DNA from: Candidatus Omnitrophota bacterium
GTDB lineage: Bacteria > Omnitrophota > Gorgyraeia > JAGLLT01
Assembly: GCA_030632085.1 (NCBI GenBank)
Contig: DAOVJY010000002.1
Location: forward strand, 77,325-141,324
Length of the DNA: 64,000 bases
Direction: 5' to 3'
The notes under the pieces were generated by a model that saw nothing but the letters and a program-made list of their open reading frames with translations, was not told where the DNA came from and did no database searches. Below, piece after piece: positions 959-18,661 of the stretch. Positions within the stretch are counted from its first letter, which is position 1, and each line of letters begins with the position of its first letter. The translations under genes and the position numbers were made by a program.

Positions 959-960
959 TT

Positions 961-2688
961 ATGACCGATGATTTTCTGAGAAGAAAACCATTAGGTGAAA
1001 TTCTTTTTGATCAGGGTATAATCAGCCAGGAGCAATTAGATGAAGCGCTTGAAGACCAGAAAAAAAGCGGCCGGTTATTAGGTAGAATCCTGGTTGAATT
1101 TGGCTTTGTAAAAGAGGAAAGAATTCTGGAAGCTCTCGGTATTCAGATTGGTATGAAGGTTACTAATCTGGCCGACATGAATATACCCGAAGAAGTCATT
1201 AAGCAAGTGCCTTCTTCATTAGCTCAGGTTTATAATGTAGTTCCCGTTAAAATTGAAAATAATATTATTACCGTAGCCCTATCAGACCCGCTTAATATAA
1301 ACGTTTTGGATGATTTAAGATTTGTTTTGAATTGTGAAGTTCAGGGAGCAATTGCCATGGAGGAAGATATTAACGAGGCTATAGAAAAATATTACGGGGT
1401 TACTACTCAGGAAGATTCCCTCAATGCTCTGGTTCAGGAAATAGAAAAAAGTACTCCCACGGTTTTATCGGCTGAAATTCAAGAGATGCAGGATATTACC
1501 AGTTTAAAAGAGCTCGCCTCCCAGGCTCCGGTTGTAAAGCTGGTTAACCTGGTTCTTTTGCAGGCCGTAAAAGATACGGCCAGTGATATTCATTTCGAAC
1601 CTTTTGAAGATGAATTTAAAGTCCGTTATCGTGTTGACGGTGTTTTATATGAAATAACCCGTCCTCCTAAGAATCTTAGTTTGGCCATAACTTCCAGAAT
1701 AAAAGTTATGGCCGGCCTGGATGTAGCTGAAAGCCGAATTCCTCAGGATGGTAGGATTATGATGCGTGTAGCCGGTAGAGGTATTGACCTGCGCGTTTCT
1801 ACTTTACCGACCGTTTTTGGAGAAAGTGTGGTTATGCGTGTTTTAGATAGAAGCGTAATCAGTTTAGATTTGGATCAAGTCGGCCTGACAACCGAGCAGC
1901 AGGACATCGTTAAGAAACTTATCAGTAAACCTAACGGTATTATTCTTGCAACCGGCCCCACCGGCTGCGGCAAAACAACTACGCTTTATTCCTGCTTAAG
2001 GGAAGTTAATAAAATTGAATATAAGATTATTACAACTGAAGATCCGGTTGAATATGATATTTCCGGGATTATCCAGGTTAGTATTAAGCCTAAAATTAAC
2101 CTGACTTTTGCCGCGTGCTTAAGGCATATATTAAGACAGGACCCGGATATTATAATGGTTGGTGAAATTCGCGATAAAGAAACGGCCCAAATAAGTATAC
2201 AAGCCTCATTGACCGGCCACCTGGTATTTTCTACTTTACACACTAATGATGCTCCGGGAGCGGTTACCCGATTAATTGACATGGGCATTGAGCCTTTCTT
2301 AATATCTTCAACCCTTGAGTCGGTTGTCGCTCAGAGGTTGATACGTGTTCTATGCCCTAAGTGTAAAGAGGCCTATGTGCCGGATGAATATGAACTATCC
2401 CAGATTAATCTTTCTCAGGATAAGGCCGCGGATAAGACATTTTATCGGGCCAAAGGCTGCCATGAATGTAATGATATTGGTTATAGAGGCAGAACCGGAA
2501 TATTTGAAATACTGATAATGACTGATAAAATCAGAACTCTTATTATGGATAAATCCCATACGGCTCTTTTAAGAAAAGCGGCCATTGAAGGCGGTATGCG
2601 TACTTTAAGAGATGATGGCCTACTTAGAGTATATGACGGTTTAACTACTATAGAAGAAGTTATCAGGGAAACTCAAGGGTATTCTTAA
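961..2688 (+). CDS. pilB: Type IV pilus assembly ATPase PilB/GspE
   Basis: 575 aa with a GSPII_E N-terminal domain, Walker A GPTGCGKTTT and a C-terminal tetracysteine motif CPKC...CHEC. It follows pilT directly. Confidence 0.9.
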   Translation: MTDDFLRRKPLGEILFDQGIISQEQLDEALEDQKKSGRLLGRILVEFGFVKEERILEALGIQIGMKVTNLADMNIPEEVIKQVPSSLAQVYNVVPVKIENNIITVALSDPLNINVLDDLRFVLNCEVQGAIAMEEDINEAIEKYYGVTTQEDSLNALVQEIEKSTPTVLSAEIQEMQDITSLKELASQAPVVKLVNLVLLQAVKDTASDIHFEPFEDEFKVRYRVDGVLYEITRPPKNLSLAITSRIKVMAGLDVAESRIPQDGRIMMRVAGRGIDLRVSTLPTVFGESVVMRVLDRSVISLDLDQVGLTTEQQDIVKKLISKPNGIILATGPTGCGKTTTLYSCLREVNKIEYKIITTEDPVEYDISGIIQVSIKPKINLTFAACLRHILRQDPDIIMVGEIRDKETAQISIQASLTGHLVFSTLHTNDAPGAVTRLIDMGIEPFLISSTLESVVAQRLIRVLCPKCKEAYVPDEYELSQINLSQDKAADKTFYRAKGCHECNDIGYRGRTGIFEILIMTDKIRTLIMDKSHTALLRKAAIEGGMRTLRDDGLLRVYDGLTTIEEVIRETQGYS

Positions 2689-2840
2689 ATGAATAAGATA
2701 GTTAAGGCTGGTAGCTTGTATTTGATAATTGTTGTGCTTAAACTAAAACATCCCGCATACTGCGGGATTTAATTCTGGCAAATTACTTACATTCGCTTAC
2801 GCTCTGTAAGTAATGCCCTCATTAAAGGAGGTAACCGAAA

Positions 2841-4127
2841 TTGCCTAAATTTGAATATAAAGCTATAGATCCTAACGGTAGAGAAATTTCAGGTGTTGTT
2901 GATGTCGGAACTACGCAAGAAGCTGTTTCTAAAATAAAAAATAAAGGGTTTTATCCGACACAGATAAACGAAGTAAAAAAAGAACAAGCTCAGAAATCTC
3001 CCGGAGCGGCTGCTGCTGCCGCGCCTGCCGCGCAAAAAAAAAGCGGACTTAATGCTGAATTATGTATTCCTTTTCTGGGCATAGGTACTGTTAAAAATGT
3101 TGATGCCGCGATTTTCACCAGGCAGTTGGCCACGTTAATTGAAGCCGGCCTTCCTTTGGTAAGAAGTTTAAATGTTTTGTATGATCAGCTAAAATCCGGG
3201 CCCTTAAAAAGTATTATATCTAATCTTTCAAAAGACGTTTCCTCCGGAGGTACTTTAAGTGAATCTCTGGCCAAGTACCCTAGGGTTTTTAACCATCTTT
3301 ATGTCAATATGATCAAGGCCGGTGAGGCCGGCGGCATACTTGAACTTGTTTTAGAAAGATTAGCTGAGTTTCAGGAAAAAAACATGGCCTTGACTCAAAA
3401 GGTAAAATCAGCCCTTACTTATCCGGCTTTGGTTGTTGTTTTCTCAGCCGGCGTTCTTTTGTTTTTAACCACCTATATTATTCCCAAATTTATGGGTATT
3501 TTTGAGAATATGGATGTTGGTGAAATGCCGGGCATTACTAAATTTGTTATGATTATGAGTTCGCTTATAAGGGATAAATGGTATATCGGTGTCGGCCTTA
3601 TGGTTTTGGCTATTGTCGCTCTTAAAGTACTAAATAGCTTTAAGAATAGTAAATTTTTCATAGATAAGTTTAAACTGCGTATTCCCGTAGCGGGAGACTT
3701 AACTAAAAAAATAGAAGTATCCAGATTTTCCAGAACTCTGGGTACTCTTATTTCCAGCGGTGTTCCTATCTTGCAGGCTTTACGAATCACACGGGGAATA
3801 ATGAGTAACGAAGTCATGCGCAGGGCTCTCAAGCGTGTTCATGATAGTATCCGCGAAGGTGAATCTATAGCCGGCCCCTTAAAAGCCAGCGGAGCTTTTC
3901 CGCCCATGGTTGTGAATATGATAGATGTTGGTGAAGAAACCGGTTCTTTGGATACCATGCTCAATAAAGTCGCTGATATTTATGATACTGATGTTGATGC
4001 CACGGTAGACGCCTTGACTTCAATCATTGAACCATTTTTGATTGTCAGTATGGGTGTTATTGTAGGTTTCCTGGTAATTTCTATGTTCCTGCCGCTCTTT
4101 AAACTTATGGCTTCATTATCCGCTTAA
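2841..4127 (+). CDS. pilC: Type IV pilus inner-membrane platform protein PilC/GspF
   Basis: 428 aa with two GspF-type repeats and three TM segments. TTG start follows the SD AAAGGAGG. Confidence 0.85.
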   Translation: MPKFEYKAIDPNGREISGVVDVGTTQEAVSKIKNKGFYPTQINEVKKEQAQKSPGAAAAAAPAAQKKSGLNAELCIPFLGIGTVKNVDAAIFTRQLATLIEAGLPLVRSLNVLYDQLKSGPLKSIISNLSKDVSSGGTLSESLAKYPRVFNHLYVNMIKAGEAGGILELVLERLAEFQEKNMALTQKVKSALTYPALVVVFSAGVLLFLTTYIIPKFMGIFENMDVGEMPGITKFVMIMSSLIRDKWYIGVGLMVLAIVALKVLNSFKNSKFFIDKFKLRIPVAGDLTKKIEVSRFSRTLGTLISSGVPILQALRITRGIMSNEVMRRALKRVHDSIREGESIAGPLKASGAFPPMVVNMIDVGEETGSLDTMLNKVADIYDTDVDATVDALTSIIEPFLIVSMGVIVGFLVISMFLPLFKLMASLSA

Positions 4128-4192: not shown

Positions 4193-4618
4193 ATGAAAAA
4201 CAACGCTTTTACTATAGTTGAATTAATGATTGTACTCATTATTATGGGTATTCTGATGGGGCTTACCGTAGGAGGAGCTATGAAGATTCTGCAGGAGGCC
4301 AAAAAAGGGCAGGCGGAGGCTGATATAGGTGCTCTTGAATCGGCTGTATCCAGGTATGAAAGGGATATTGGTAGTTATCCCCCTGATTCAGCTAACGGTT
4401 TATGGTATTATCTTGAGGATGATAGATCAGGAGATCCAACCGGTTGGGAAGGCCCTTATATTGATTTTGATGACGGTAGGACTTCAGATAATAATTATGA
4501 AGACCCCTGGGATAATAATTATCAGTATGATTGCACAAGTGTAACTAGGCACAATCTTGACTTTGTAGACATATGGACGACAGTTCCAAGTACAGGGGAT
4601 ACAATAGGCAATTGGTAA
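4193..4618 (+). CDS. GspG-type pseudopilin / major pilin paralog 1
   Basis: Prepilin N-terminus MKNNA|FTIVELMIVLIIMGIL, and GspG hallmarks DIGSYP, WEGPYI and DPWDNNYQY. The C-terminal tail is rich in aromatic and acidic residues. Confidence 0.8.
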   Translation: MKNNAFTIVELMIVLIIMGILMGLTVGGAMKILQEAKKGQAEADIGALESAVSRYERDIGSYPPDSANGLWYYLEDDRSGDPTGWEGPYIDFDDGRTSDNNYEDPWDNNYQYDCTSVTRHNLDFVDIWTTVPSTGDTIGNW

Positions 4619-4632
4619 AGAGGGTGTTTTAA

Positions 4633-5118
4633 ATGATATATAGTAATAAAAAGGCTTTTACATTAGTTGAAATGATAACTGTGATGGTTATTGTCGGTAT
4701 TTTATTAGGGCTTGTGCTAACGGGTTCTTTTAACGCGATTAAGGAAGCTCGAATTGAAAAAGCTAAAGCGGCAATGAAGGCGACTAAGGCGGCGTTAGAG
4801 ATGTTTGAATCGGATATTGGTGATTATCCCGTATATACAAATACATCCGGTAATGGAAATGATTTTAAGTCTTGGTTGATGAATGGGGATCATGCAACCG
4901 GTAATTATGACAACTGGTATGGGCCTTATATGAGTTTTATAGATGCTGAAATTTTAAGTAACACTCATTATTTGGATCCCTGGGGAAACGGTTATAGATA
5001 TTATCATGTAGCGGATACGGATGGCTATAATCTTTGGTCGTCCGGGCCGGATGGAAATAATGACAGCCTTGATGGTGAAAGCGGTATAATCGGAGATGAT
5101 ATAGGTAGTTGGGACTGA
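4633..5118 (+). CDS. GspG-type pseudopilin / major pilin paralog 2
   Basis: KKA|FTLVEMITV N-terminus; motifs DIGDYP, WYGPYM and DPWGNGYRYY; SD AGAGGG. Confidence 0.8.
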   Translation: MIYSNKKAFTLVEMITVMVIVGILLGLVLTGSFNAIKEARIEKAKAAMKATKAALEMFESDIGDYPVYTNTSGNGNDFKSWLMNGDHATGNYDNWYGPYMSFIDAEILSNTHYLDPWGNGYRYYHVADTDGYNLWSSGPDGNNDSLDGESGIIGDDIGSWD

Positions 5119-5123
5119 TAGAT

Positions 5124-5636
5124 ATGAAAAAAATAAAAGCTTTTACATTGATAGAGTTATTAATGGTAATGGTAATTATCGGTATTTTAGCTTCCCTGAT
5201 TACTACCGGGGCTTTTAGGTCTATAAGGGGTGCTCGGGAAAGCAAAGCACAGTCTGATATAGCGGCCCTGGAAACGGCCATTGAGAGATATAAATTAGAT
5301 GTGGGCGTATATCCTCCGGGAGACGGTTCAGGCAACAGCTTTAAGTACTACCTGCAGGATGACAGGAGTGTCGATACAACCGGCTGGAATGGGCCTTACA
5401 TGATTTTTAAAGCTAAGGATTTAAATGTTAACGCTTTTGTTGATCCCTGGGGAAGTGATTATAGATATTATCATGATCAGCTCACCACAGGGAAAGCGTA
5501 TTTGCATACCTACCCGGATACGCATATCACTCAAAATCCAATTGATATATGGTCTATTGGCGAAAACAAAACAGATGATGTAGAAACGACTAATTATATT
5601 AACACAGATGATGATATATACAGCTGGGGGGATTAG
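5124..5636 (+). CDS. GspG-type pseudopilin / major pilin paralog 3
   Basis: MKKIKA|FTLIELLMV N-terminus; motifs DVGVYP, WNGPYM and DPWGSDYRYY. ATG at 5124 is preferred over the ORF-track start at 5109. Confidence 0.8.
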   Translation: MKKIKAFTLIELLMVMVIIGILASLITTGAFRSIRGARESKAQSDIAALETAIERYKLDVGVYPPGDGSGNSFKYYLQDDRSVDTTGWNGPYMIFKAKDLNVNAFVDPWGSDYRYYHDQLTTGKAYLHTYPDTHITQNPIDIWSIGENKTDDVETTNYINTDDDIYSWGD

Positions 5637-5648
5637 TTGGTGATTAAT

Positions 5649-6179
5649 ATGAAAAAGAAATCTTTCACTCTTTTAGAGATGATGGTTGTCTTGGTTATTA
5701 TTTTTATAATAACAGCGATTGCGATGCCTAATTTCTGGGGAGGCTATAAGAGCAAGGAGGTTAAAGGTTCCGCGAGGAGAGTTGCCTCTATTTTAAGTAC
5801 CGCTAAAAGCTATGCCCAAGCTCAAAATACGCAGTATGATGTTGTTTTTTGGTATGGCGATAGTTTTCTTAGTATGGATATTTATAAAGAGTTTGATCCT
5901 TGGACTGAAGCGAGTTGGGATCGTAAAGTTGGAAAATCTGAAAAATTCAATTTTACGAAAGTTGGAATTAGTACTATAATTGATACACCCATTACTACAC
6001 CCATCAGCAATTATGCCTGGATATCATTCTATTCCGATGGGCGCGCTGATGATCATGATGCTAATCTTCCGGAAGATGAAGAGATTGTTTTTACGCTTGA
6101 TGTCGGTGGAACCCCCAAAACCCTTACAATATATATCAATGAAAACACCGGCTGTATAAGAGTTGGTGATTTAGAATAA
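5649..6179 (+). CDS. GspH-like minor pseudopilin
   Basis: MKKKS|FTLLEMMVVLVII prepilin N-terminus; about 175 aa, the size of GspH/FimT. ATG 5649 is preferred over TTG 5637. Confidence 0.65.
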   Translation: MKKKSFTLLEMMVVLVIIFIITAIAMPNFWGGYKSKEVKGSARRVASILSTAKSYAQAQNTQYDVVFWYGDSFLSMDIYKEFDPWTEASWDRKVGKSEKFNFTKVGISTIIDTPITTPISNYAWISFYSDGRADDHDANLPEDEEIVFTLDVGGTPKTLTIYINENTGCIRVGDLE

Positions 6180-6236
6180 TTGATTGCATATTTTCTTGCC
6201 TTTTTTATTTCCTCATGATATAGTTAGCTCCGCGTT

Positions 6237-6713
6237 ATGAGGAATTCAAGTTTAAAATCATCTTTCACTATAATTGAGCTGGTAGTCTGCCTGGTTATTG
6301 TGGGTACTATTTCAGCGGTAACTTTGCCGTATTGTTGGGGCGCTTACAGGTCTGCTGAAGCTAAGACTTCCGCCCGTGTTGTTGCTTCAATATTAAGAAG
6401 CACAAAAGAGAGTGCCCGGGCTCAAGGTAAGAAATATGAGATTATTTTTGCAGCTTGTGATAATAATCTTAATATTGATGTCTATACCAACTTATCAGAA
6501 GTTAATCCTTTGAAAGTAGGTAAGACCGAGAAACTATCCTTAAGCGGTTCATATGAATTTAGAATAACATTTTATAATGATAAAGCCATCTTTACTTCTT
6601 TTGGGACTTCTAACGGAGGGTCTGTTTATATTACTGATACTTCTACAGGCAAAGGTTATAGGATAAGTGTGTTATCAACCTCCGGCAGGGTTAAAGTGCT
6701 GGCTTTTGATTAA
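6237..6713 (+). CDS. GspH-like minor pseudopilin (second copy)
   Basis: SS|FTIIELVVCLVIVG N-terminus. It shares the core ARVVASIL..A with the previous gene, so it is a paralog. Confidence 0.6.
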   Translation: MRNSSLKSSFTIIELVVCLVIVGTISAVTLPYCWGAYRSAEAKTSARVVASILRSTKESARAQGKKYEIIFAACDNNLNIDVYTNLSEVNPLKVGKTEKLSLSGSYEFRITFYNDKAIFTSFGTSNGGSVYITDTSTGKGYRISVLSTSGRVKVLAFD

Positions 6714-6745
6714 TAGCGGTTAGATTTATTTTTCTTTTCTTATCA

Positions 6746-6774
6746 TTGATAAGTTTTGTAACTTGTGGTATTAT
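6746..6774 (+). promoter_or_regulatory. Candidate sigma-70 promoter TTGATA-N17-TATTAT
   Basis: Read directly from the sequence, upstream of the GspI-like gene. Confidence 0.4.
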
Positions 6775-6835
6775 ATACAGTAGAGATAGTATGCATTAAG
6801 TGAATATAATATTTTTTTTAGGAGGTTTATAAAAA

Positions 6836-7198
6836 ATGAGAAAAAAACAAGGGTTCACTCTTTTAGAAATAGTTATTGCTTTGGCTATATTAGCTATCGG
6901 CCTTGTTGGTATTTTAAGCCTTTTTCCGGTAGGTTTTGAGGCCTCAAGAAGGGCCAGTATGCTTACGGAGGCAACTATCCATGCTCAGCAAAAAATGGAA
7001 GAGTTTAAGCGAATCGGCTATGATGGCCTTTTTGATACAAATTACGCGGCATTTTCTGATAATAGTGGTTTGGAATGGAAGGTTACGGTTGTAGAAATAG
7101 ATCCTCTCGGGAATTTAAAAAGCGTAACTCTCGATATTCAATGGCAGGAGAAAGGGGACAATAAGAGTGAGACATTTGTTACTTATATCGCCAAGTAA
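6836..7198 (+). CDS. GspI/PilV-like minor pseudopilin
   Basis: MRKKQG|FTLLEIVIALAIL N-terminus; 120 aa, the size of GspI. Confidence 0.65.
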   Translation: MRKKQGFTLLEIVIALAILAIGLVGILSLFPVGFEASRRASMLTEATIHAQQKMEEFKRIGYDGLFDTNYAAFSDNSGLEWKVTVVEIDPLGNLKSVTLDIQWQEKGDNKSETFVTYIAK

Positions 7199-7817
7199 AA
7201 GAAAGGCTTTTACCCTTATTGAAATACTGGTAGCCAGTGTTATCCTGGTTATTATAGTTGGGTCTATGGCGGTAATTTTTTCGCAGGCTAATCGGTCGTG
7301 GAGTGAAACGGAAGCCAGATTACAGGTTTATCAAAATACCAGGGAAGTTATAAACGCGATCTCCAGAGATATTGCCTGCGCCTATCAAAGCACCAGCACT
7401 GTTGTTAAATTCGATTATGACAACATTGCTACTGATACTCTCTATTTTACCGCGGCGGTTAATACAAATTACGACACAAATGAATATGATTTAAGTATTA
7501 TCGGCTACAAAATAGACACCGCAACCAATACTGTAAAAAAATATAAAGAAGATTATGACGGAACACAAGCTGCCGGCTGGACACCAACTTCCGGCAATTG
7601 GAGCCCTTTGGCTGAGAATATAACCGGTTTGGCTTTTGAGTTTTATGACGCGGATCAGACAGTTCCCGGATGGCTTGTATCAGGTAGTAAATGGAATTCT
7701 AGTGTAGGTGTAAAAGATTATTTACCCCAGGCGGTTAAGATAACAGTTGATGCCGAGGATAAACAAGCTAGATTCAGTAGAACTTTTAATACCACTATCT
7801 ATATTCAGGCATACTAA
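7167..7817 (+). CDS. GspJ/PilW-like minor pseudopilin
   Basis: KRKA|FTLIEILVASVIL N-terminus; 216 aa. It overlaps the previous gene by 32 nt. Confidence 0.6.
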   Translation: MRHLLLISPSKRKAFTLIEILVASVILVIIVGSMAVIFSQANRSWSETEARLQVYQNTREVINAISRDIACAYQSTSTVVKFDYDNIATDTLYFTAAVNTNYDTNEYDLSIIGYKIDTATNTVKKYKEDYDGTQAAGWTPTSGNWSPLAENITGLAFEFYDADQTVPGWLVSGSKWNSSVGVKDYLPQAVKITVDAEDKQARFSRTFNTTIYIQAY

Positions 7818-7914
7818 TTTTGAGAGCATCTATTCAAATAATCAAGAAGTTACGCGGTAAATATGGCATTAACGGCTATGAAGAGAAGTTTCTAAATAAT
7901 CTAAGGTGGTAGAT

Positions 7915-10344
7915 ATGTTAGTAAATTTAAAAAAGAGAAAAGGTATTGCCCTGCCCCTCATCATAGGTATCATTGCTCTTTTGGTTATTATTGTAATGGG
8001 CTTAATAGTTGCTTTGAAGTATGAAACGATAAGCGTCATAGTATCTTCAGATCTACAAAAGGCCGCTTATCTTGCTGATTGCGGAATTAATAAGGCGATC
8101 GCTGGATTAAAAACAAAGGCAGGAAGTGATTTTATCTGGAGTGTAAATGATACAGGTCTAGATGATACTGATTGGTATGACGGATATAGCTGTAGTACCT
8201 TATTAAGTAATCTGGGTTCATATAATGCTAATATTATAGATTGTTCGAATCAGATATATGTTAATGGTGATAATACCGGTGATAGATTAGAAGATATGTT
8301 AAATATCTTAGGCGGAAATATTGGAGGAGGCTGTAGCGGCGATGAAGGAACCAAGATTATTAACAATCGCCCGACAGCCGGCTACGAGACCAAGAAACAG
8401 CTAAGAATTGCCTTAACCGACGGTGAATATAACGCTATTAAAGATTATGTGACAATCTGTAGCTATGTAAATAGTTCGTTTAACCGGGCCCCTATAAATG
8501 TCAATACGGCAAAGCAAGCTGTTTTAGAGACCGTCTTAGAGGGCATATCGGGTATCTCAGATGGGCAAGCAGCTACAGCCGCTAACGCCATTATGAATGG
8601 AAGCGATAAAAGGCCTTTTTCTGATTGGAGCGGTTTTGATACTTGCATAGACGGCACTCTTTTAACTTTAGGCGAGAAACAGTCTATCAAAGATAACTGT
8701 AATCCTAACTCTACCGCCTGGAACAGCACTACTGGAGCATATGAACACACTTCGGATACAACAGAATTCTGTTTTCACGCTGGAGGGTATTTTGAGATAG
8801 AGTCAGAAGGCACCTTTTATCAATCCGCCGCCCAAAGTATTATTCTTGCCCGGAAAAACATTGCTACTATAGTTCATACTCATAGTGTATTTAATAAAAC
8901 TACTAAAGCCGATTTTACCGCGGGGGATACCAATTTTGACGGAACAGAAGATATCGCGGGAGAAGGTGTACCTATCTATGGAAATGTCAACTGGCTTGAT
9001 TCTTGCCCTGTTGATTCGAGTGATGAAACTGGATTGTATTCTGATGAAGCTGCGGGAATATATGATGTAGATGAGACTGATAAATGCAAACCTTTATATG
9101 ATGTTATTCCCGGCTCAATAAAATTAGGTTTTTGGGATAATTGTGATGAGGAGAATGATAATACCGCTCAAACAGGTTGGAGCTGGGAGCACTGGATAGA
9201 TTCTGAAAGCGGCTCTCTTGCAATAGTTGACCGTGATTCAGATGGTGATTATGAATTGAGCTCGACTTCCAGCAACTCAGATTCTCATCTAGATCTTCTT
9301 GGGGTTCAACCCGACCAGTGGAATTGCGGCCAGAAATTCTCAATTAGATTATACGCTCATTTATATGAAGAAAAACCTCACCCATATATAGTTGCGGATA
9401 GTAGGCGATGGGGCGAGATTTATGAAGACGAGCAGCAGATAGAATTTGTCGGGATAGGCGGAACACCTGATATGCATAAGATGTTTGTAAGTCAGTTTAG
9501 ATGTGTATACTGGGGTGGTCCGGTGGATATAAGCGGCGGCGGATTGAACCCACCCGATGATTTTTTAGATACTATGCTTAGAATGATTTGGGATGGCGGC
9601 GGCGGAGAGCACTATGTTTATATGCATGATTTATATAGTTTACCTATTAATAGTGCTACATTACCCGCAGATGGTAATCGTATCCTTCCCTGGAATGTTG
9701 CTATGAGATTAGTTGTTGATGGAAGTGGTGACGGTAATTATACGGCATACCTCGCGGTTGATGACGGAGGCGCTTATCATGAATGGTATGCAGGAGATGG
9801 GGGCGAGTGGATTCCATGGAGCTGGCGGATTCATATGGTGAAGTATGACGCGGATGACCATGACTTCCATATCATGACAGATGTAGGCGATACTGACAGA
9901 TATGATTGTATGAATCATGACCAATCAGTCAATAAGTTTATAAAGACTGATTGGTTTCTACGCTTAAGAAATGATGTCCCAAGTTACAGCCGCTATCCAA
10001 TATGGGATGATGTCCGTATTATTCCTGATGAGGGATATTATCAATCACCTCAGTATAGTCCGACAGGAGGTTCTAATGTTGAATGGGGAGCTATAAACTG
10101 GACACTGACCATGCCAGATTCTGCAAGTTCTTCTTCAGAGACAGCTGAGGTTGAAGTTGATACAGGCAGTGGTTTTAGTCCAGTGAGCCAGAATGGTAGT
10201 ATAAATGCGGCTGCATCGAGTAATATAAAATATAAAGTTACTTTAAAATCAACCGATACAACTCATAAAGAAACACCTGTATTTGAGGATATAACGGTGA
10301 TTTATTTGCCGCAAACGAAAGTATTGTACCGGAGTGGGCAATAA
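7915..10344 (+). CDS. Giant GspK/PilX-like pseudopilin, putative pilus-tip protein
   Basis: Uncleaved hydrophobic N-terminus KGIALPLIIGIIALLVIIVMGLIVAL and a GspK-type HhH-like motif NVNTAKQAVLETVLEGISGIS. It occupies the GspK slot after the I/J-like genes. The central insertion of several hundred residues, rich in Cys, Asp and Gly, is unusual. ATG 7915 with SD AAGGTGG is preferred over GTG 7906. Confidence 0.55.
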   Translation: MLVNLKKRKGIALPLIIGIIALLVIIVMGLIVALKYETISVIVSSDLQKAAYLADCGINKAIAGLKTKAGSDFIWSVNDTGLDDTDWYDGYSCSTLLSNLGSYNANIIDCSNQIYVNGDNTGDRLEDMLNILGGNIGGGCSGDEGTKIINNRPTAGYETKKQLRIALTDGEYNAIKDYVTICSYVNSSFNRAPINVNTAKQAVLETVLEGISGISDGQAATAANAIMNGSDKRPFSDWSGFDTCIDGTLLTLGEKQSIKDNCNPNSTAWNSTTGAYEHTSDTTEFCFHAGGYFEIESEGTFYQSAAQSIILARKNIATIVHTHSVFNKTTKADFTAGDTNFDGTEDIAGEGVPIYGNVNWLDSCPVDSSDETGLYSDEAAGIYDVDETDKCKPLYDVIPGSIKLGFWDNCDEENDNTAQTGWSWEHWIDSESGSLAIVDRDSDGDYELSSTSSNSDSHLDLLGVQPDQWNCGQKFSIRLYAHLYEEKPHPYIVADSRRWGEIYEDEQQIEFVGIGGTPDMHKMFVSQFRCVYWGGPVDISGGGLNPPDDFLDTMLRMIWDGGGGEHYVYMHDLYSLPINSATLPADGNRILPWNVAMRLVVDGSGDGNYTAYLAVDDGGAYHEWYAGDGGEWIPWSWRIHMVKYDADDHDFHIMTDVGDTDRYDCMNHDQSVNKFIKTDWFLRLRNDVPSYSRYPIWDDVRIIPDEGYYQSPQYSPTGGSNVEWGAINWTLTMPDSASSSSETAEVEVDTGSGFSPVSQNGSINAAASSNIKYKVTLKSTDTTHKETPVFEDITVIYLPQTKVLYRSGQ

Positions 10345-10355: not shown

Positions 10356-11453
10356 ATGAAATCTACAATTGTTATTCTGATAACGGTTATTTTTTTATTT
10401 ATGATAAGTCCCTGTTTCGCAAGCTTGCCAATAGATGAAGCCGTTGATGAATTTAGTCAAAGGCTGGGTAAGATTACAAGCGATGGTATAGATAAAGATG
10501 ATGCTGAAGATTATTTTGAGTTGGGTAAATTCTGTATAAAAAACGGCTTACTTGAACGCGCTAAGGTTATTTTAGAAAAAGCGGCCGGCCTCGATCCAAA
10601 ATATCAAGATAGAGTAGAACATCTTTTGGCTGATATAAAGGATAAAGAAGAGCGGGGTAAGGATTTAGGATTAATTTATTCTGCATATGATGATTACAAC
10701 TTAGGATATTACGGTGAGGCAAAGATAAAGCTTGAAGAGTTGATAGAGAAATATGAAGAAAGTGAATATGTCAATAAGGCAGAGAATCTTCTTGATGAAA
10801 TGAAAAATAAAACAGAAGATAAGCCCTTTCTTTTAACTCCTGTTACAGATAATCCGATGGAATTTAGAAAGTTTATCACCGATATTATAAAAGAAAAAGC
10901 AAAAGAGCGGAATTGTGATGTGAAAGAAATTGATGTATCAAAGGTAAAAGAGGAATATCTATCAAACCTCATTAAAAAGGCCGAATATTTTATCTCTGAC
11001 ATGACAGCCAAGAGCAACGGAGAAAGCTTAAACCAGGATTACCTTTTTTTTGCAATGAAGTGTACAGAGGTAGTTTTCAAATTGTCAGAAAATGAAAAAT
11101 TAAAAGAGAAAACAAAAGACATTCAAACCGAAGCCGCGAACAAGTTATTTACCGAGTACCCGTTGCCGGCTGATATAAAAAATCTGGATTTATATTATAA
11201 GAGGCTGCAGTTAGTAGATAATAAAGAAATTATTAAGAATATATGCGAGAAATATCTTAAACTTGGCAATGTTTATCTTGAAAGAGCCAATGAATCAGAG
11301 GGCCGGAAAAAGATTGATTATTTGGTCAAAGCTTATGATGTATTTGCGATGGTTAAAGATTACGCGAAATCCGATGAGATTAAGAATAAGGCCTTTAGAA
11401 AAATAAAATTGATTCAAAAAGAGAAGAGGAAAGAAGTAAGAAAATTAAGATAA
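10356..11453 (+). CDS. Secreted helical TPR-like protein, possible PilF-like pilotin
   Basis: Signal peptide MKSTIVILITVIFLFMISPCFA; helical, repeat-like composition. It lies inside the pilus locus. Confidence 0.35.
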   Translation: MKSTIVILITVIFLFMISPCFASLPIDEAVDEFSQRLGKITSDGIDKDDAEDYFELGKFCIKNGLLERAKVILEKAAGLDPKYQDRVEHLLADIKDKEERGKDLGLIYSAYDDYNLGYYGEAKIKLEELIEKYEESEYVNKAENLLDEMKNKTEDKPFLLTPVTDNPMEFRKFITDIIKEKAKERNCDVKEIDVSKVKEEYLSNLIKKAEYFISDMTAKSNGESLNQDYLFFAMKCTEVVFKLSENEKLKEKTKDIQTEAANKLFTEYPLPADIKNLDLYYKRLQLVDNKEIIKNICEKYLKLGNVYLERANESEGRKKIDYLVKAYDVFAMVKDYAKSDEIKNKAFRKIKLIQKEKRKEVRKLR

Positions 11454-11716: not shown

Positions 11717-13375
11717 ATGGCAATTAAGAATTTAATCGGGCTAGATATAGGCCATAGCGCGGTCAAGTTAATAAAATTTAAGAAAGTCCGCAATAAAATA
11801 CAGCTTGAGAAGGCCCGAGTGGTTGAACTGCAAGATGGTGTTTCCCCTTCAGCGGCAATAGCCGCGCTTTTTAAAAGTGAACGATTAGGCGCTTGCAAAA
11901 TAGCTATATCCGTTTCAGGCCAGTCTGTTTTTACGCGCTATACAAAGCTTCCTAAAATATCCCAGAAAAAGATTGAACAAGTAGTTAAATATGAAGCCCA
12001 GCAGCAGATTCCTTTTCCGATTGATAAGGTTGTTTGGGATTATCAGCTATTTAAAATATCTAAAGGCTCTCAGTTGGAAGTTTTTCTGGCTGCCGTTAAG
12101 AAAGACATTATAGATAATTTATATCGCCAGGTAAACGCGATTAAAGGAGCTGAAGTTGTTTCTGTGCAGCCCGCGCCGGTAGCTCTTTATAATATACTTA
12201 ATTTTAATAAAGAAATAAACGATAAAACGGTTATTTTAGATATTGGAGCTAATGTTACCAGCGCTATCATTGCTAAAGGCAGGCAGTTGTGGATAAGAAG
12301 TATACCTATGGGCGGGGCCGAGTTAACCAGGGTTATAGGTGAAAGCCTGGCTTTAAAACCTCAGGAAGCGGAGATTTTAAAACGTAAAGAAGGTATCGTG
12401 TTGGCGGGTGTTACCGGTGATGAAGACCTGACTCCAAGGTCAGACGCGATTTCAAAGGCTATTAGTCCCGTGTTAAGTGAACTTTTATCGGAAGTTTCAC
12501 GTTCTATTAGTTATTATAAATCTCAATTTGATAAAGAAGCGGTTTTTGAGAAAGTGCTGCTGACAGGCGGCGGTTCTAAGATACGTTATATCGAAAGATT
12601 TTTTGAAGCTAACCTGAAGATAAAGACAGAAAAAGTCAATCTTTTTAAAAATTTAACCACTAATAAATACGTAAAAGCTAACATTGATGACATTGATGAT
12701 CGCTTGGCGGTTGCTATGGGCTTAGCCCTCCCGGGAGTAGAAACGCCGACTATTAATTTAAATTTGATTTCTGATCAACAAAGGAAGCTCAAAGACTTTT
12801 CAAAGAAGAAAGTATATATTACCAGCTCCGCGTTAATTGCTCTCGGTATTTTTGCCATGCTGAGTTTATGCAATGCGCAGGGAGTGAATTCAGCTGCCGG
12901 CAATCTTAAAGCTATATCTCTTGAAATGAATAAATACCGTGATAATCAAGTAACAATAAATGAGTTGCAAAACAGTATCAAGGCTGTAAAACTAAAGTTA
13001 AACTTTTTAGGAGATATTACTAAAGACAGAACAATCTGGCTGAATATATTATCAAGAATAAACGGTTCTTTGCCGGGGGATACTTGGTTAATCAGGTTTA
13101 GCACCGACGCGAATGAACCTAATATTATTATTTTAGAAGGTAAAACAACCGGCCCTTTTGATACAATTAAAAACTTCGGGGAAAAGCTTCTTAGCCTTGG
13201 GTTTTTTTCCGGCGTTGAAACTTTGCGGGCTGACAGGCCGTCGGCTGAAGAAGAAGAGTTAGGCGAGCCGTACAATATAGTGTTTACTTTAAAGTTGATG
13301 TTGAAAAACCCGGCTTCTAATTTTTTCATAAGAAAAGAACCTGTAGCCGCGGAAAACAAAAGAATTAAAAGATGA
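11717..13375 (+). CDS. pilMN: PilM-PilN fusion protein (actin-like ATPase fused to a TM coiled-coil domain)
   Basis: N-terminus LIGLDIGHSAVKLIK is a PilM/FtsA-like fold. An internal TM helix VYITSSALIALGIFAMLSLC at about aa 365 is followed by a PilN-like periplasmic region. Confidence 0.75.
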   Translation: MAIKNLIGLDIGHSAVKLIKFKKVRNKIQLEKARVVELQDGVSPSAAIAALFKSERLGACKIAISVSGQSVFTRYTKLPKISQKKIEQVVKYEAQQQIPFPIDKVVWDYQLFKISKGSQLEVFLAAVKKDIIDNLYRQVNAIKGAEVVSVQPAPVALYNILNFNKEINDKTVILDIGANVTSAIIAKGRQLWIRSIPMGGAELTRVIGESLALKPQEAEILKRKEGIVLAGVTGDEDLTPRSDAISKAISPVLSELLSEVSRSISYYKSQFDKEAVFEKVLLTGGGSKIRYIERFFEANLKIKTEKVNLFKNLTTNKYVKANIDDIDDRLAVAMGLALPGVETPTINLNLISDQQRKLKDFSKKKVYITSSALIALGIFAMLSLCNAQGVNSAAGNLKAISLEMNKYRDNQVTINELQNSIKAVKLKLNFLGDITKDRTIWLNILSRINGSLPGDTWLIRFSTDANEPNIIILEGKTTGPFDTIKNFGEKLLSLGFFSGVETLRADRPSAEEEELGEPYNIVFTLKLMLKNPASNFFIRKEPVAAENKRIKR

Positions 13376-14160
13376 AATTTTTTAAAGAACTGCTTCAGAG
13401 AAATTTAATATTTTTTATTGTAACAGCCTTACTGTTATTAGTGGTTGTTGCCGCCGGGGTTAATTTTGCTTCCGGCCTTGGAAAGAAATATTCCCTGGAC
13501 GGTAAAATCCAAAAAGAAATGCGGCTTTTAGATAATTTCAAAACGATAAAGGACGCGGCTCCAACTTTAAAATGGATAGATTATCTATCTAAAAAAGAAA
13601 AGCTTTTTGGTAAAATATATGTTGATGCCGGCTTACTGTATGATAAGCCGGCGTCTTTTATGCCAAAAGATATTATTGAACCTTTAAAATTCAAGGAAAA
13701 GATTTTTAAAAAGCAGAAGGAGATGCGTAAAAAGGCGTATTCCAGCCAGCTTGAATTAAAAGAAGAGGCTGTATCTTTTGGTTTTAAGGAATATGAAACC
13801 AAGATACCAACTGAAGCCGAAGTTCCAAATTTGACAAAAAAATTGGATATTATTCAAGAAGTAGTAAATCTTATGTGCCTCAGTCATATTGAGACCTTAT
13901 CTTCAGTTGAGTTTCTAACTCATAGAGATGACAAGTTGGAGACTATTCGGGGTAATATCAATTACAGAGTTTTTTCTTTAAGGCTTAGCGCAACCTCATC
14001 CGTGAAAAAATTGGTTGATTTATTATTCAAAATATCAACGTCGGATTATATATTTATAACCGAAGAATTAAATATCGCACAATCGGAAGATTTTAAGGAA
14101 AAAATAAATTCAAGTTTTGTTATTTCGTGCATAGTACTTATGGAGAGCGATGAAAAGTAA
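13372..14160 (+). CDS. PilO-like inner-membrane pilus assembly protein
   Basis: Single N-terminal TM helix LIFFIVTALLLLVVVAAGV followed by a soluble domain. Its position after pilMN and 4-nt overlaps with both neighbours support the call. Confidence 0.45.
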   Translation: MKFFKELLQRNLIFFIVTALLLLVVVAAGVNFASGLGKKYSLDGKIQKEMRLLDNFKTIKDAAPTLKWIDYLSKKEKLFGKIYVDAGLLYDKPASFMPKDIIEPLKFKEKIFKKQKEMRKKAYSSQLELKEEAVSFGFKEYETKIPTEAEVPNLTKKLDIIQEVVNLMCLSHIETLSSVEFLTHRDDKLETIRGNINYRVFSLRLSATSSVKKLVDLLFKISTSDYIFITEELNIAQSEDFKEKINSSFVISCIVLMESDEK

Positions 14161-14836
14161 TCCCTTATTATCCAATATAGAAAAAATAGTTTTCGGACTC
14201 TTGATTCTCATTTCATTAATTGTTATTGTAATCTATCAAGGGCGTATTTATATTAAAGATGAAACTATCAAAAATAAAATAGCCGGAGTTAAATTTAATT
14301 TACCTCCTGAAAAAATTGAAGGCGTTAAAGAATATAATGACTTAATCGCGCGGCTTAAGCGGTTAGATAGTTTTAGTAAATATGAAATCTATCTCGCGAG
14401 AAACGGTTTTCTGAAATATATTAAGCCGGTGCCCGAGATACCTCCATTTGAATTAAAGGCTGTCCGTAAAAAATATCTGGATGTGGAATATAGGGGTTTT
14501 ATAGAGTCTCTTTCGGGTACCGTTGCCCAGTTAAAGGTGAAAAACAGATCTTACTTCGTTAAAGAAGGCGATGAAATTGATGGCTATACAGTTAAAAAAG
14601 TATGTAATGATTATATGCTCATTAAAGATGGGGCCGGCGTTGAATACATATTGCCTTTAGGAGAAAAGATTTTAAGTAATGATTATGAGGCCGCGCTTTA
14701 CGTAAGTAAAACACATAAGACGGTTAAGGTAAAATTGGGTGATATTGTAAATGGCTTCAAAGTACTTGACATTTCACCTGAGAATGTGGTATTATATAAC
14801 CAAACTTATAATAAAAAACTAATTGTAGAGAAGTAA
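14150..14836 (+). CDS. PilP-like pilus assembly protein (putative)
   Basis: N-terminal TM helix IVFGLLILISLIVIVIY and a beta-rich C-terminal region. Its position between pilO and the secretin genes supports the call. Confidence 0.35.
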   Translation: MKSNPLLSNIEKIVFGLLILISLIVIVIYQGRIYIKDETIKNKIAGVKFNLPPEKIEGVKEYNDLIARLKRLDSFSKYEIYLARNGFLKYIKPVPEIPPFELKAVRKKYLDVEYRGFIESLSGTVAQLKVKNRSYFVKEGDEIDGYTVKKVCNDYMLIKDGAGVEYILPLGEKILSNDYEAALYVSKTHKTVKVKLGDIVNGFKVLDISPENVVLYNQTYNKKLIVEK

Positions 14837-14891
14837 CATAAGTGTGGACACAAGATGTTGCGATTAAGCTACTAAAAAAAGGAGAGTCTCA

Positions 14892-16001
14892 ATGTGCAGG
14901 CTTCTTAAAAAATTTACTGTATTAATTTGCTTAACTATAGTAATAGTCTTTGCTCTCAATAATATAGCCTATTCTCGAAGCAAAACAGACGCTGAAGATT
15001 TAGCCAAAAAGCTTGCTGTGCAGAAGAAGCTGGAGCAGGAAGAAAACGAGATATTGATAGATGGCCGTAATCAACGGGGCATTTATTATTTCAACAAAGG
15101 ATATTATAATGAAGCTATTCAGCAGTTTCATTTAGCCCTAGAGCTTGATCCCGGTAGTGCCGTAGCCAATGAATATCTCAATAAGGCATTGGAAAAACTT
15201 AGCAAGTCGGCTAAGAAGCATTATAAAAAGGGTGTGGCTTACTATAATAAGGGAGAAATGCAGAAATGTATTGATGAAATGTCTATGATACCCGTATGTT
15301 CTTCTTATTATCAAAAAGCGCAAGAGTATATTACATATTCTGATGAAGTATTGACCGAAGGTGCCGTTTATGGAATAAATAGCCCTAAAGCCGGAACACA
15401 GCACATTAAAGATCAAATGAGGCAAATGGACTCAGAGAAAGAGTTAGTTATGCTGCGCAAAAAAGCTCACGAGCAGCAACTCATGCTTGAAGTAGATTCA
15501 GCCTATTTACCCCCGGAATCATATGAAGAAGCAGCGGAGGAAGAAGCTATAAGCGCTGAAGAAATAGAAGAGCAGCAAAGAGAAGAAGCTCAGAAAAGAT
15601 TGCGGGCTAAGATGAATGAAAACATTGTTCCCGCTTTAAGTTTAAGTGATGCCGATATCAGAGATGTTATCAGGGAATTAGTTAAATTAACCGGTGTTAA
15701 TATCATTCTTGATGAAGGAGCTCTAAAGAAGGCATTAGAAGCCGGCATTATGACAGTGTCGTTTACTACCGTTACCCCCATGCCGCTTTTAGACTTATTA
15801 GATATTGCTTTAAAAACTTCCGATTTAACTTATAAAATGGAACCTACATATATATGGATCTCAGATAAAGAAACTATATATAAAGAAAACTTAGTCGTTA
15901 GGACTTATAAGCTTAAATATGGAGTAAGAAGCACTAGAAGTGTGCAGCTTACTCAATTTGGTGATGACGTGGATGATGACTTTGGTGATGATGATTTTTA
16001 A
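14892..16001 (+). CDS. Secreted TPR protein carrying a secretin/TonB N0-like (STN) domain with an acidic C-terminal tail
   Basis: Signal peptide and a TPR region (YFNKGYYNEAIQQFHLALELDP). The segment DADIRDVIRELVKLTGVNIILDEG...TVSFTTVTPMPLLDLLDIALKTSDLTYK matches the N0 domain of PilQ/GspD. The protein ends DDVDDDFGDDDF. Confidence 0.6.
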   Translation: MCRLLKKFTVLICLTIVIVFALNNIAYSRSKTDAEDLAKKLAVQKKLEQEENEILIDGRNQRGIYYFNKGYYNEAIQQFHLALELDPGSAVANEYLNKALEKLSKSAKKHYKKGVAYYNKGEMQKCIDEMSMIPVCSSYYQKAQEYITYSDEVLTEGAVYGINSPKAGTQHIKDQMRQMDSEKELVMLRKKAHEQQLMLEVDSAYLPPESYEEAAEEEAISAEEIEEQQREEAQKRLRAKMNENIVPALSLSDADIRDVIRELVKLTGVNIILDEGALKKALEAGIMTVSFTTVTPMPLLDLLDIALKTSDLTYKMEPTYIWISDKETIYKENLVVRTYKLKYGVRSTRSVQLTQFGDDVDDDFGDDDF

Positions 16002-16014
16002 CCTATAAAAGGCT

Positions 16015-18350: not shown

Positions 18351-18661
18351 TGAAAAAAAAGTGCTTGAAGTTTTTAATTTGCTTGTTAATTGTTCATATA
18401 ATTAGCTTTGCGGGAATAGCTGAAAAGGCCGCGGCCGCTGAGGACAACAGCAAAATTAAACTTACAACGTGTGACTTGCATAAGCCTTATATTATTAGAG
18501 GCCTTGTTCATGTAAGAACGGGGCAACCTGACCTTAATAAAATTGATGAAATGTTGATAAAGGAGGCCAAAAAACTTGATGCCGATTGTATTATCGGTGT
18601 CGGTTATATGGAAGCATACGGATATCTTTTTGGTTATGGTACAGCCGTTAAGGTAAAATGA
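18350..18661 (+). CDS. Small secreted protein with a YbjQ/UPF0145-like C-terminal fold
   Basis: Signal peptide MKKKCLKFLICLLIVHIISFAG; C-terminal ADCIIGVGYMEAYGYLFGYGTAVKV resembles the UPF0145 core. Confidence 0.3.
   Translation: MKKKCLKFLICLLIVHIISFAGIAEKAAAAEDNSKIKLTTCDLHKPYIIRGLVHVRTGQPDLNKIDEMLIKEAKKLDADCIIGVGYMEAYGYLFGYGTAVKVK

Follow-up and report, generated by a model that had tools for sequence, protein, structure and literature searches.

Pilins that carry lectin, PA14 or vWA modules are documented and have been proposed to reside at the filament tip (PMC8179133, PMC9934059). GspK and XcpX, the minor pilins closest in fold to the N-terminal part of the protein described here, are proteins of ~260-330 aa which hold nothing beyond the pilin fold.

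The uncultured and mostly ultra-small bacteria of the Omnitrophota are suspected to live on other cells, and no adhesin is known to have been assigned to their type IVa pili. Such pili are near-universal in Omnitrophota, where they are the most consistent "symbiosis" trait and have been proposed to serve in host attachment (PMC10066038). Here, I describe an Omnitrophota operon, contained in a 64,000-nucleotide stretch of DNA that was analysed as a whole (the window), in which the gene following those for the GspI- and GspJ-like pilins encodes an 809-aa protein, made of a predicted GspK-like pilin and 474 further residues, for which a binding role at the filament tip is proposed.

The gene and its operon

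The reading frame is uninterrupted from the ATG at 7915 to the stop codon at 10342-10344 (809 aa, ~88 kDa) and constitutes an intact, genuine gene. Translation from an alternative in-frame GTG at 7906 would yield 812 aa; P0001, the identical protein on deposit, has 809, and in public data a protein identical to the target is present on three contigs. The coordinates of the gene, of the segments of its product and of the surrounding operon are collected in Table 1.

Table 1. Features of the target gene, its product and its operon (window coordinates)
Feature	Position	Strand	Evidence
Motor and platform: PilT-like ATPase 2..958 (cut at window start), GspE/PilB with MshEN 961..2688, GspF/PilC 2841..4127	2..4127	+	Pfam
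Seven pilin genes: GspG-like 4193, 4633, 5109; GspH-like 5637..6179, 6237..6713; GspI/PilV-like 6836..7198; GspJ-like 7167..7817	4193..7817	+	Pfam, NCBIfam
Shine-Dalgarno-like AAGGTGG, 5 nt upstream of the ATG	7903..7909	+	Direct sequence reading
Whole ORF, 809 codons and stop; modular GspK/PilX-like minor pilin (predicted)	7915..10344	+	Sequence; identical deposited protein P0001
Prepilin-type leader MLVNLKKRKG (aa 1-10), then hydrophobic N-terminal helix IALPLIIGIIALLVIIVMGLIVAL	7915..8019	+	Sequence, alignment
GspK-like module (aa 1-335): long alpha1 helix and pilin beta-sheet (strands 91-109, 268-328), predicted	7915..8919	+	AF2, Foldseek
Alpha-domain with helix-hairpin-helix motifs (aa ~121-262), including RAPINVNTA (aa 191-199)	8275..8700	+	Profile matches
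Conserved acidic linker (aa 336-399), DxNxDG-like motif at 338, near-invariant VNWLDSCPV (358-366)	8920..9111	+	Alignments, motif scan
Large beta-rich domain (aa 400-704), from IKLGFWDN to WDDVRIIP, hypervariable core aa 471-690	9112..10026	+	Foldseek, variability
Terminal beta-sandwich (aa 705-809, ~105 residues), motifs VEWGxIxWT and ETPVxEDITxTYLPxTxxLY	10027..10341	+	AF2, hhalign
365-aa Lys/Glu-rich protein, signal peptide, weak sub-threshold TPR matches, immediately downstream	10356..11453	+	Profile scans
Alignment and outer-membrane genes: PilM-PilN fusion, Amuc_1100/PilO-like, 228-aa ORF, TPR/secretin-N0-like, two tandem secretins, 103-aa ORF	11717..18661	+	Profile scans

The position of the gene directly downstream of the GspI-like and GspJ-like genes is repeated in loci L001-L016, and the gene of the 365-aa Lys/Glu-rich protein adjoins it also in the closest relatives. 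The wider order GspE-F-G-H-I-J-[K]-(TPR)-PilMN-PilO-like-secretin-secretin recurs across many loci, that of the alignment and secretin genes being conserved in L002-L016, while locus L001 has a second MshEN-GspE gene upstream. The two tandem secretins are short (386-391 aa) and 43% identical to each other. The genes called at loci L001-L004 include no PilY1 (PF05567). Incidentally, genes neighbouring the target weakly match the Verru_Chthon cassette proteins B, C and D.

Such an operon may be read in two ways. The protein might cap a true type II secretion pseudopilus, its extension staying in the periplasm and capturing or pushing substrates, or gating or plugging the secretin: the pilins match the GspG, GspH, GspI and GspJ families (the major ones, in Pfam, the GspG family of type II secretion systems, T2SS), XcpX and GspK of T2SS are the nearest fold relatives of the N-terminal module, and JGI labels relatives of the target "PulK". 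The operon, however, contains a PilT-like ATPase, PilM_2 and PilN (as a PilM-PilN fusion) and a PilO-like gene, none of its scanned products matches the GspC or GspL families, and the family (see below) has a hypervariable core, tandem paralogues and variants with a PA14 domain, features more in keeping with an exposed determinant of specificity than with a conserved part of the machine, all of which makes a T2SS tip an unlikely reading. Along the same line, substrate capture, which the preliminary description had offered beside a tip adhesin, is less likely as a role in type II secretion because the operon encodes PilT and PilM-N.

Domain architecture and composition

Residues 1-335 are predicted to form a complete GspK/XcpX-like minor pilin, comprising leader, pilin fold and helix-hairpin-helix alpha-domain. 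The Gly/hydrophobic-helix pattern of prepilins is present, with leader and helix joined at KRKG/IALPLIIG; G10 and A12 are invariant in a 14-sequence alignment, and Glu at +5, typically absent from GspK, is lacking in the target and in all 16 homologues whose leaders were compared. As expected for GspK-type leaders, the Pfam scan returned no match to PF07963. The AF2 model reaches a pLDDT of ~90 over aa 10-335, and its top four Foldseek matches are all XcpX or GspK (9a1f_T, 6utu_C, 5vtm_X and 3ci0_K; E 2e-7 to 8e-4, probability 1.0, TM on target ~0.6). Within the module, the alpha-domain matches ComEA (8dfk, E 2.6e-5) and XcpX (5vtm_X, E 0.022) by profile.

Curated family models recognise the target below their cut-offs: Pfam T2SSK (PF03934) at aa 194-221 (E 4e-4; 21.1 bits vs a cut-off of 24.2) and NCBIfam GspK (NF037980) at aa 168-226 (E 4e-4; 19.9 bits vs 130). 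Pfam matches in 54 relatives comprise T2SSK in 27, HHH_3 in 25 and PilX_N in 14; at E<=0.01, T2SSK is found in 27 of these 54 and in 12 of the 16 relatives of another set. Both features named in the preliminary description, the N-terminal anchor and the helix-hairpin-helix motif, are thus confirmed in the target, and the assignment to the GspK/PilX-type minor pilins, of which this would be one of unusual size, follows from the fold, the leader and the gene position after the GspI- and GspJ-like genes.

What the preliminary description took for an insertion is placed differently. The GspK-like fold needs no residues beyond about 335, and the rest of the protein (aa 336-809) is a C-terminal extension lying outside the pilin fold, in which a linker (336-399; pLDDT low at 371-395) leads in the AF2 model to two beta-rich domains (400-704 and 705-809). 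No significant match to the extension was found in Pfam, NCBIfam, PHROGs or the PDB (phmmer and profiles A1 and A5), so that the domain search suggested earlier leaves it uncovered by any sequence match in these databases; the extension defines two domain families not described in current databases.

The first of them, aa 400-704, probably folds as a concanavalin-A-like or laminin-G-like jelly roll with long variable loops. ERGIC-53, VIP36, Emp46/47, legume lectins and GH43 C-domains form the second tier of Foldseek matches of the full-length model; for aa 400-704, matches to L-type and legume lectins and to GH43 C-domains have a probability of 0.9-0.98, E ~0.01-0.07, TM 0.35-0.49 and an rmsd of 10-14 A, on a patchy pLDDT which falls below 50 across much of aa 488-677, the region underlying the lectin-like matches. 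A model of the extension alone, which served as a consistency check on the primary full-length model, is poorer (pLDDT 50), and the lectin matches recur there. By profile, no concanavalin A-like family (including Laminin_G_3, PF13385) matches the target or the 54 relatives.

The terminal domain is modelled with confidence (pLDDT mostly 76-92) and ends in a conserved tail, LPxTxILYWRE; it ends within five residues of the C-terminus in 140 of 143 single-copy occurrences. Its counterpart in P0149 (hhalign probability 98.7%, E 2e-16) comes immediately after a genuine Laminin_G_3 domain (E 1.2e-14), and in the hhalign comparison of the extension profile with P0149 only the terminal domain was aligned, the Laminin_G_3 domain not being reached. 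In giant surface proteins, a related terminal domain adjoins GH16-like segments. A profile search found no PDB sequence relative of the terminal domain; among the Foldseek matches, PNGase PAW and EmbC carbohydrate-binding domains cover a stretch of ~115 columns, assigned here to the terminal domain by length alone, and matches of the terminal-domain profile to the PA14 domains of Flo1 and Flo5 (E 0.07-0.46) were treated as due to chance. Structure prediction, another check suggested at the outset, yields a confident GspK-like fold, weak lectin-like fold matches and a confident terminal beta-sandwich.

As regards composition, most of the patches quoted in the preliminary description are found where the sequence is read, namely CSGDEG (140), CPVDSS (364), CKPLYD (391), CDEEND (410), DRDSDGDYELSS (439), WGGPVDISGGGLNPPDD (533) and WDGGGGEH (559); a "CFVCNQ-like" patch is absent, the nearest being NCGQKF at 470. 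The Asp clusters and Gly runs are real: Asp makes up 9.6% of the protein (window background 5.2 +/- 1.6%), the highest share among the 44 long open frames of the window, Gly 9.4% and Trp 2.7%, and in the extension Asp rises to 11.6% and Trp to 3.8%. Carbohydrate-binding modules are often rich in aromatic residues. Contrary to the early impression of a Cys-rich, disulfide-stabilised module, the 14 Cys (1.73%; 1.27% in the extension) are at the level of the window background (1.29 +/- 0.92%) and poorly conserved: among homologues only C262 and C286 (GspK module) and C364 (linker) are kept, and none of Cys 410, 471, 530 and 665, situated in the lectin-like and terminal domains. A module of that kind was therefore rejected.

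Two DxDxDG-like motifs, 338-DTNFDGTED and 439-DRDSDGDYE, are retained in only some family members. An acidic, Gly-rich first loop is common in laminin-G-like domains, and the motif at 439 would lie at the corresponding place. The same motifs, the excess of acidic over basic residues in aa 336-704 (69 vs 23) and the Ca2+ dependence of the L-type lectins among the fold matches might be taken to mean that the extension is a Ca2+-dependent, disulfide-stabilised structural module in which Ca2+ bound at the Asp clusters controls folding or pilus dynamics, as in PilY1. Yet 8 of 16 homologues are devoid of strict motifs, the cysteines speak against disulfide stabilisation, and no sugar-binding or metal-binding residues are identifiable, metal sites being unreadable from a model of low confidence; a structural Ca2+ module is accordingly judged improbable.

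A variable family and its proposed role

Word-indexed homologue searches gave only 14-18 relatives, and the size of the family became visible from an exhaustive profile search, in which 314 cluster representatives match the extension. They come almost only from Omnitrophota/PVC MAGs, and the GspK-like N-terminus is joined to the module in 126 of the 157 family proteins examined (~540-1070 aa, mostly 670-1000). The GspK module is 30-37% identical among members; the core (aa 471-690) has a mean pairwise identity of 17-20% and varies in length from 115 to 294 residues. P0003, for instance, is 61% identical to the target in the GspK module and 10% in the core. Some genomes carry three tandem paralogues, as at locus L006, and in 7 of 54 members a PA14 carbohydrate-binding domain is present as well. 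Invariant in the alignments are K403, G405, W407, D408 and W427.

These five residues also bear on the idea that the extension is an enzyme at the pilus tip, a glycanase or polysaccharide lyase of concanavalin-A fold degrading polysaccharides of the host cell wall or matrix. In its favour, GH16 and PL-14 belong to this fold class, the Foldseek matches include GH43 C-domains and an alginate lyase of PL-14 (5gmt_A, probability 0.80), and to these may be added the GH16-like neighbours of the terminal domain in giant proteins and a preprint in which Omnitrophota giant proteins, with pilus and secretion genes adjacent, are proposed to degrade cell walls (10.64898/2026.06.07.730766). In the alignments, however, the invariant residues do not make up an ExDxxE motif of the GH16 type, no glycoside hydrolase or lyase family matches the target or its 54 relatives, and the hypervariability of the core makes a conserved active site less likely, so that a tip enzyme appears very unlikely. 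As for an assembly or annotation artefact joining a normal GspK gene to a downstream one, for which the unusual length alone would speak, the reading frame is continuous, the same protein occurs on three contigs and the single-ORF architecture is repeated in many independent assemblies and more than 100 sequence clusters, whereby the fusion envisaged as a caveat in the preliminary description is effectively refuted.

The reading that I favour, with fair though not high confidence, is that of a modular tip pilin which displays a module for binding a ligand, probably a glycan. The solved GspI-J-K and XcpV-W-X complexes suggest, by analogy, that prepilin peptidase would cleave after Gly10, and that the GspK-like cap would then join the products of the upstream GspI-, GspJ- and GspH-like genes in a complex priming filament assembly and remaining at the tip thereafter. 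The filament itself would be built from the three GspG-like pilins by way of GspE/PilB, GspF/PilC, PilM-N, the PilO-like protein and the two secretins, with the PilT-like ATPase available for retraction. Since the payload (336-809) is fused to the cap, it would be shown outside the cell at the filament tip, where it may bind to a surface, the most likely ligand being a glycan of a substrate or of a host or prey cell. An adhesin would thereby be built into the pilus cap, in the place held by PilY1 in classical type IVa pili. The weak lectin-fold matches, the hypervariable centre and the tandem paralogues point to such a tip-exposed binding module as the best reading of the additional ~470 residues, in keeping with the adhesin role first suggested; as an attachment device the protein is plausible but unproven.

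A bolder version is more doubtful, though conceivable: the extension might be the determinant of host or prey recognition in Omnitrophota nanobacteria, a cap-fused adhesin replacing PilY1 whose variable core, mosaic evolution and paralogues set the cells to which they attach, the terminal domain being a new tip-specific element. In either form, the protein, a conserved cap pilin encoded in the operon whose payload varies and probably binds glycans, provides a concrete and testable candidate adhesin, and the type 4 filament field would gain a case in which the GspK-type cap itself bears the effector module. No concept is overturned, modular pilins with lectin modules being already known.

Comparison with known systems

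GspK and XcpX (3CI0, 5VTM, 6UTU) share with the target a leader devoid of Glu+5, a pilin fold with an inserted helix-hairpin-helix alpha-domain, a gene position after gspI and gspJ and the expected role of a cap. The target differs from them by its 474 additional residues, by scores below the curated cut-offs and by an operon that is type IV pilus-like (PilT, PilM-N) rather than T2SS-like.

CofB and TcpB of type IVb pili are, like the target, large tip minor pilins (>500 aa) that have been compared with GspK and in which the pilin is followed by partner-binding beta-rich domains; they belong, however, to another pilus class, form trimers and carry a beta-repeat and an H-type-lectin-like domain, and neither sequence nor fold searches with the target returned them. 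Verru_Chthon cassette protein A (TIGR02600), of ~1300 aa and known from Verrucomicrobia, is accompanied by the pilin-like proteins B, C and D and resembles the target in its PVC context and GspK-like N-terminus; membership was rejected, the match being confined to residues 10-67 and scoring 13.2 bits against a cut-off of 332.3.

In Streptococcus sanguinis, PilC (Ig-like and ConA-like lectin modules) and PilB (vWA) bear C-terminal modules on a pilin carrier, as the target does, and are proposed to act in adhesion at the tip (PMC9934059, PMC8179133). PilC and the target both pair a lectin-fold module, predicted in the latter, with a second beta-sandwich. The order of the modules is reversed, the lectin-like one coming first in the target and the small beta-sandwich after it, and the target's modules have neither a database signature nor detectable sequence similarity to PilC. 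The carrier differs as well, being a full GspK-type pilin of a diderm in the target and a short pilin moiety of a monoderm in S. sanguinis.

The proposed role is the same as that of PilY1/PilC of type IVa pili, a large variable adhesin presented by a minor-pilin tip complex, and the calcium regulation of PilY1 finds a parallel in the acidic motifs of the target. Membership in the PilY1 family was rejected, there being no Pfam match to PF05567 and no propeller among the fold matches. PilY1 is a non-pilin protein with a C-terminal beta-propeller (PF05567 / IPR008707), whereas the adhesin-like part of the target is covalently fused to the predicted cap.

A GspK-type module and the added mass

The reading frame is unbroken from the ATG at 7915 to the stop at 10342-10344 (809 aa), a ribosome-binding site (AAGGTGG) lies 5 nt 5' of the ATG, and an identical 809-aa protein is recorded on three contigs of one metagenome assembly. 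A gene-fusion artefact, the contingency that the preliminary description had raised against its own reading, is excluded.

The AlphaFold2 model, built from 16 homologues (pLDDT 71, pTM 0.73), places residues 10-335 throughout at a pLDDT of about 90. The best four Foldseek matches in the PDB are XcpX/GspK chains (9a1f_T, 6utu_C, 5vtm_X and 3ci0_K; E 2e-7 to 8e-4, probability 1.0, TM on the target about 0.6), and the family profile retrieves from the same database a ComEA helix-hairpin-helix domain (E 2.6e-5) and XcpX (E 0.022). Pfam T2SSK and NCBIfam GspK match the protein only below their curated cut-offs; among 54 relatives, T2SSK is found in 27, HHH_3 in 25 and PilX_N in 14. The N-terminus reads MLVNLKKRKG/IALPLIIG..., the Gly before the cleavage mark being invariant in homologues, and Glu at +5 occurs in none of 16 homologues; a leader with Gly and without Glu+5 is characteristic of GspK. 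By fold, leader and synteny, the protein is a GspK-type minor pilin, in agreement with the GspK/PilX-like identity first assigned to it. PilY1 and the Verru_Chthon cassette protein A (TIGR02600) were considered as identities and rejected.

Since the GspK-like fold is complete by residue ~335 in the model, the extra mass, formerly described as an insertion, is a C-terminal extension. For this window, the protein is unusually rich in Asp (9.6%), Gly (9.4%) and Trp (2.7%). It is not so in Cys: the 14 Cys (1.73%; 1.27% in the C-terminal 474 residues) compare with 1.29 +/- 0.92% in 44 long open frames of the window, and only C262, C286 and C364 are conserved across homologues. All the sequence patches quoted in the preliminary description are present but one, CFVCNQ. 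The observation of a giant pilin is real, and partly mis-described.

Features of the protein (residues) and of its operon (window positions, or side relative to the pilin gene)
Feature	Position	Basis or remark
Long N-terminal helix	9-71	AlphaFold2 model
Pilin beta-sheet	strands 91-109 and 268-328	AlphaFold2 model
Helical domain between pilin strands	121-262	AlphaFold2 model
Low-confidence linker	371-395	AlphaFold2 model
Beta-rich region	400-704	AlphaFold2 model; several long low-confidence loops
Confident beta-sandwich	705-809	pLDDT mostly 76-92
PilT-like ATPase	upstream	
GspE/PilB with MshEN domain	upstream	second copy just beyond the window
GspF	upstream	
Three successive GspG-like major pilins	4193-5636, upstream	
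Two successive GspH-like pilins	5637-6713, upstream	same operon as GspG-like genes
GspI/PilV-like pilin	upstream	one
GspJ-like pilin	upstream	one
Signal-peptide protein	10356-11453, directly 3'	365 aa, Lys/Glu-rich; weak sub-threshold TPR matches
PilM-PilN fusion	downstream	
Amuc_1100/PilO-like protein	13372-14160, after PilM-PilN	Pfam Amuc_1100
228-aa ORF	downstream	
TPR/secretin-N0-like protein	downstream	
Tandem secretins, 43% identical	16015-17190 and 17190-18350, downstream	391 and 386 aa, unusually short; each with Secretin and Secretin_N
103-aa ORF	downstream	

Domains of the extension

A domain search, proposed earlier as a check, found no Pfam, NCBIfam, PHROGs or PDB sequence match over residues 336-809, whether in the target or among 54 diverse relatives. 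The Foldseek matches ranking below GspK are mostly concanavalin-A-fold proteins (ERGIC-53, VIP36, Emp46/47, legume lectins, a lectin-like amylase inhibitor, GH43 C-terminal domains), with probability 0.9-0.98, E of only 0.01-0.07 and TM of 0.35-0.49; the extension modelled alone is poor (pLDDT 50), yet legume and L-type lectins are retrieved again. Residues 400-704 begin with IKLGFWDNxDE and finish with WDDVRIIP, motifs similar to those with which bacterial laminin-G-like domains commonly open and close; this is a lead only. The region is probably a ConA/LamG-like jelly roll whose loops carry large insertions.

The PNGase PAW domain and the EmbC carbohydrate-binding domain match a stretch of ~115 columns which, the Foldseek output carrying no query positions, is taken from its length to be the terminal domain. 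This domain, which has neither a Pfam model nor a solved relative, is a separable unit. In the protein P0149 it comes directly after a genuine Laminin_G_3 domain (Pfam E 1.2e-14), with hhalign pairing the two proteins over the terminal domain only (probability 98.7%, E 2e-16), and it occurs in 2-5 copies beside GH16-like segments in proteins of 1.3-2.7 kaa carrying DMFA2_C or Big_5. The giant proteins with this repeated ~100-aa domain are P0070, P0114, P0133, P0142, P0148, P0150 and P0151; purple-acid-phosphatase-N is among their further domains, P0151 having teneurin-like EGF domains instead. The conserved tail LPxTxILYWRE occurs only in GspK-fused versions.

Distribution and variation of the family

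An exhaustive search of 1.84 billion cluster representatives with the extension profile gave 314 proteins at E<=1e-3, 164 at E<=1e-10 and 74 at E<=1e-30. A custom-built HMM finds the GspK-like N-terminus in 126 of 157 family proteins examined, the others being mostly fragments or giant repeat proteins, and in 140 of 143 single-copy cases no more than 5 residues separate the end of the terminal domain from the C-terminus. Scanning one genome per GTDB species yielded 32 loci, about half named Omnitrophota (or PVC group); most others bear placeholder names, such as 'uncultured Planctomycetia', and are read as putative members of the same group. Some members are named 'PulK' by JGI and hypothetical by NCBI; the Omnitrophota genome papers PMC10066038 and 10.64898/2026.06.07.730766 mention neither GspK, PilY1 nor a pilus adhesin.

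Compared pair by pair, family members are on average 30-37% identical in the GspK module and 28% in the terminal domain, but only 17-20% in the core (residues 471-690), whose length ranges from 115 to 294 residues. The pattern is mosaic: the homologue P0003 shares 61% identity with the target over the GspK module but 10% over the core, and P0002 shares 38% over the module but 39-51% over the extension. One related locus, L006, carries three paralogues in tandem (986, 831 and 896 aa, at 3036-5996, 6894-9389 and 10655-13345), the first with a large insert in the alpha-domain; a protein resembling the one downstream of the target, with its weak TPR matches, lies between the second and third. An extra PA14 domain is found in 7 of 54 members; these (P0018 and six others in the family alignment) form a sub-family with this carbohydrate-binding domain within the GspK alpha-domain region, alongside the extension. 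Variable core, mosaic pattern, tandem paralogues and PA14 variants are together what would be expected of an exposed specificity determinant.

Operon context, proposed role and known systems

The gene order of the operon is kept in many related loci, and no PilY1-family match is listed among the genes of four loci. The presence of PilT and PilM-N fits a retractile type IV pilus-like machine better than a classical T2SS, despite the GspG-type pilins, whose multiplicity, with that of the GspH-like genes, may reflect a filament that is heteropolymeric or the use of alternative ones. At the major-pilin position of the related locus L002 (279-1073), a 264-aa product is recorded with GIY-YIG nuclease and T2SSG pilin domains. 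The tandem secretin pair, which related Omnitrophota loci also keep, may form an outer-membrane channel that is heteromeric or has two rings. Amuc_1100 is the family of an Akkermansia 'pili-like' immunomodulatory protein; a relative's counterpart of the gene also matches T2SSM_b, which suggests that Amuc_1100 is a PilO/GspM-like component of a PVC-type pilus machine. The Lys/Glu-rich protein adjoins the target homologue in the closest relatives too, and may therefore serve the tip protein specifically, as its partner or chaperone. Nearly every long ORF of the window (1-64000) is on the + strand, with positive GC skew in all 2-kb bins; as housekeeping genes fill the rest (PolA, Rho, RF1, an EPSP-synthase-family enzyme, RnfC-like, CarB, ThrRS, PheT), the operon belongs to the core chromosome rather than to an island.

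The evidence best supports a modular tip pilin. If the solved GspIJK and XcpVWX complexes are a guide, the GspK-like module would cap and prime the filament with the adjacent GspI-, GspJ- and GspH-like pilins; the lectin-like domain and terminal beta-sandwich, fused to the cap, would be exposed at the tip to bind a ligand, probably a glycan, and would take the functional place of the missing PilY1. The 'tip adhesin' first proposed is reasonable and now better grounded; its 'Cys-rich, disulfide' and 'insertion' parts do not hold. Calcium binding by the extension, also part of that proposal, is possible, although the two DxDxDG-like motifs are lacking in half of the homologues. PilT, PilM-N and the pattern of variability speak against a periplasmic role in a T2SS pseudopilus; the lack of any catalytic-family match and the hypervariable core speak against a tip-displayed glycanase. 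Disulfide stabilisation is not supported, with Cys at background level and conserved at only three positions.

The finding would gain in importance if the extension proved to be the host-recognition determinant of Omnitrophota. Relative to GspK/XcpX, the protein shares fold, leader and synteny and would function alike, but its sequence scores below the curated cut-offs, and it is 2.5 times as large as usual. CofB/TcpB of type IVb pili are functional analogues. As the authors of the modular-pilin concept note (Raynaud et al., Shahin et al.; PMC8179133, PMC9934059), many such pilins go unnoticed since no signature marks their modules; S. sanguinis PilC carries Ig-like and ConA-like lectin modules grafted on a pilin, and these bind glycans. 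The present family fits this concept as a case of modules without signatures, the GspK cap being their carrier.
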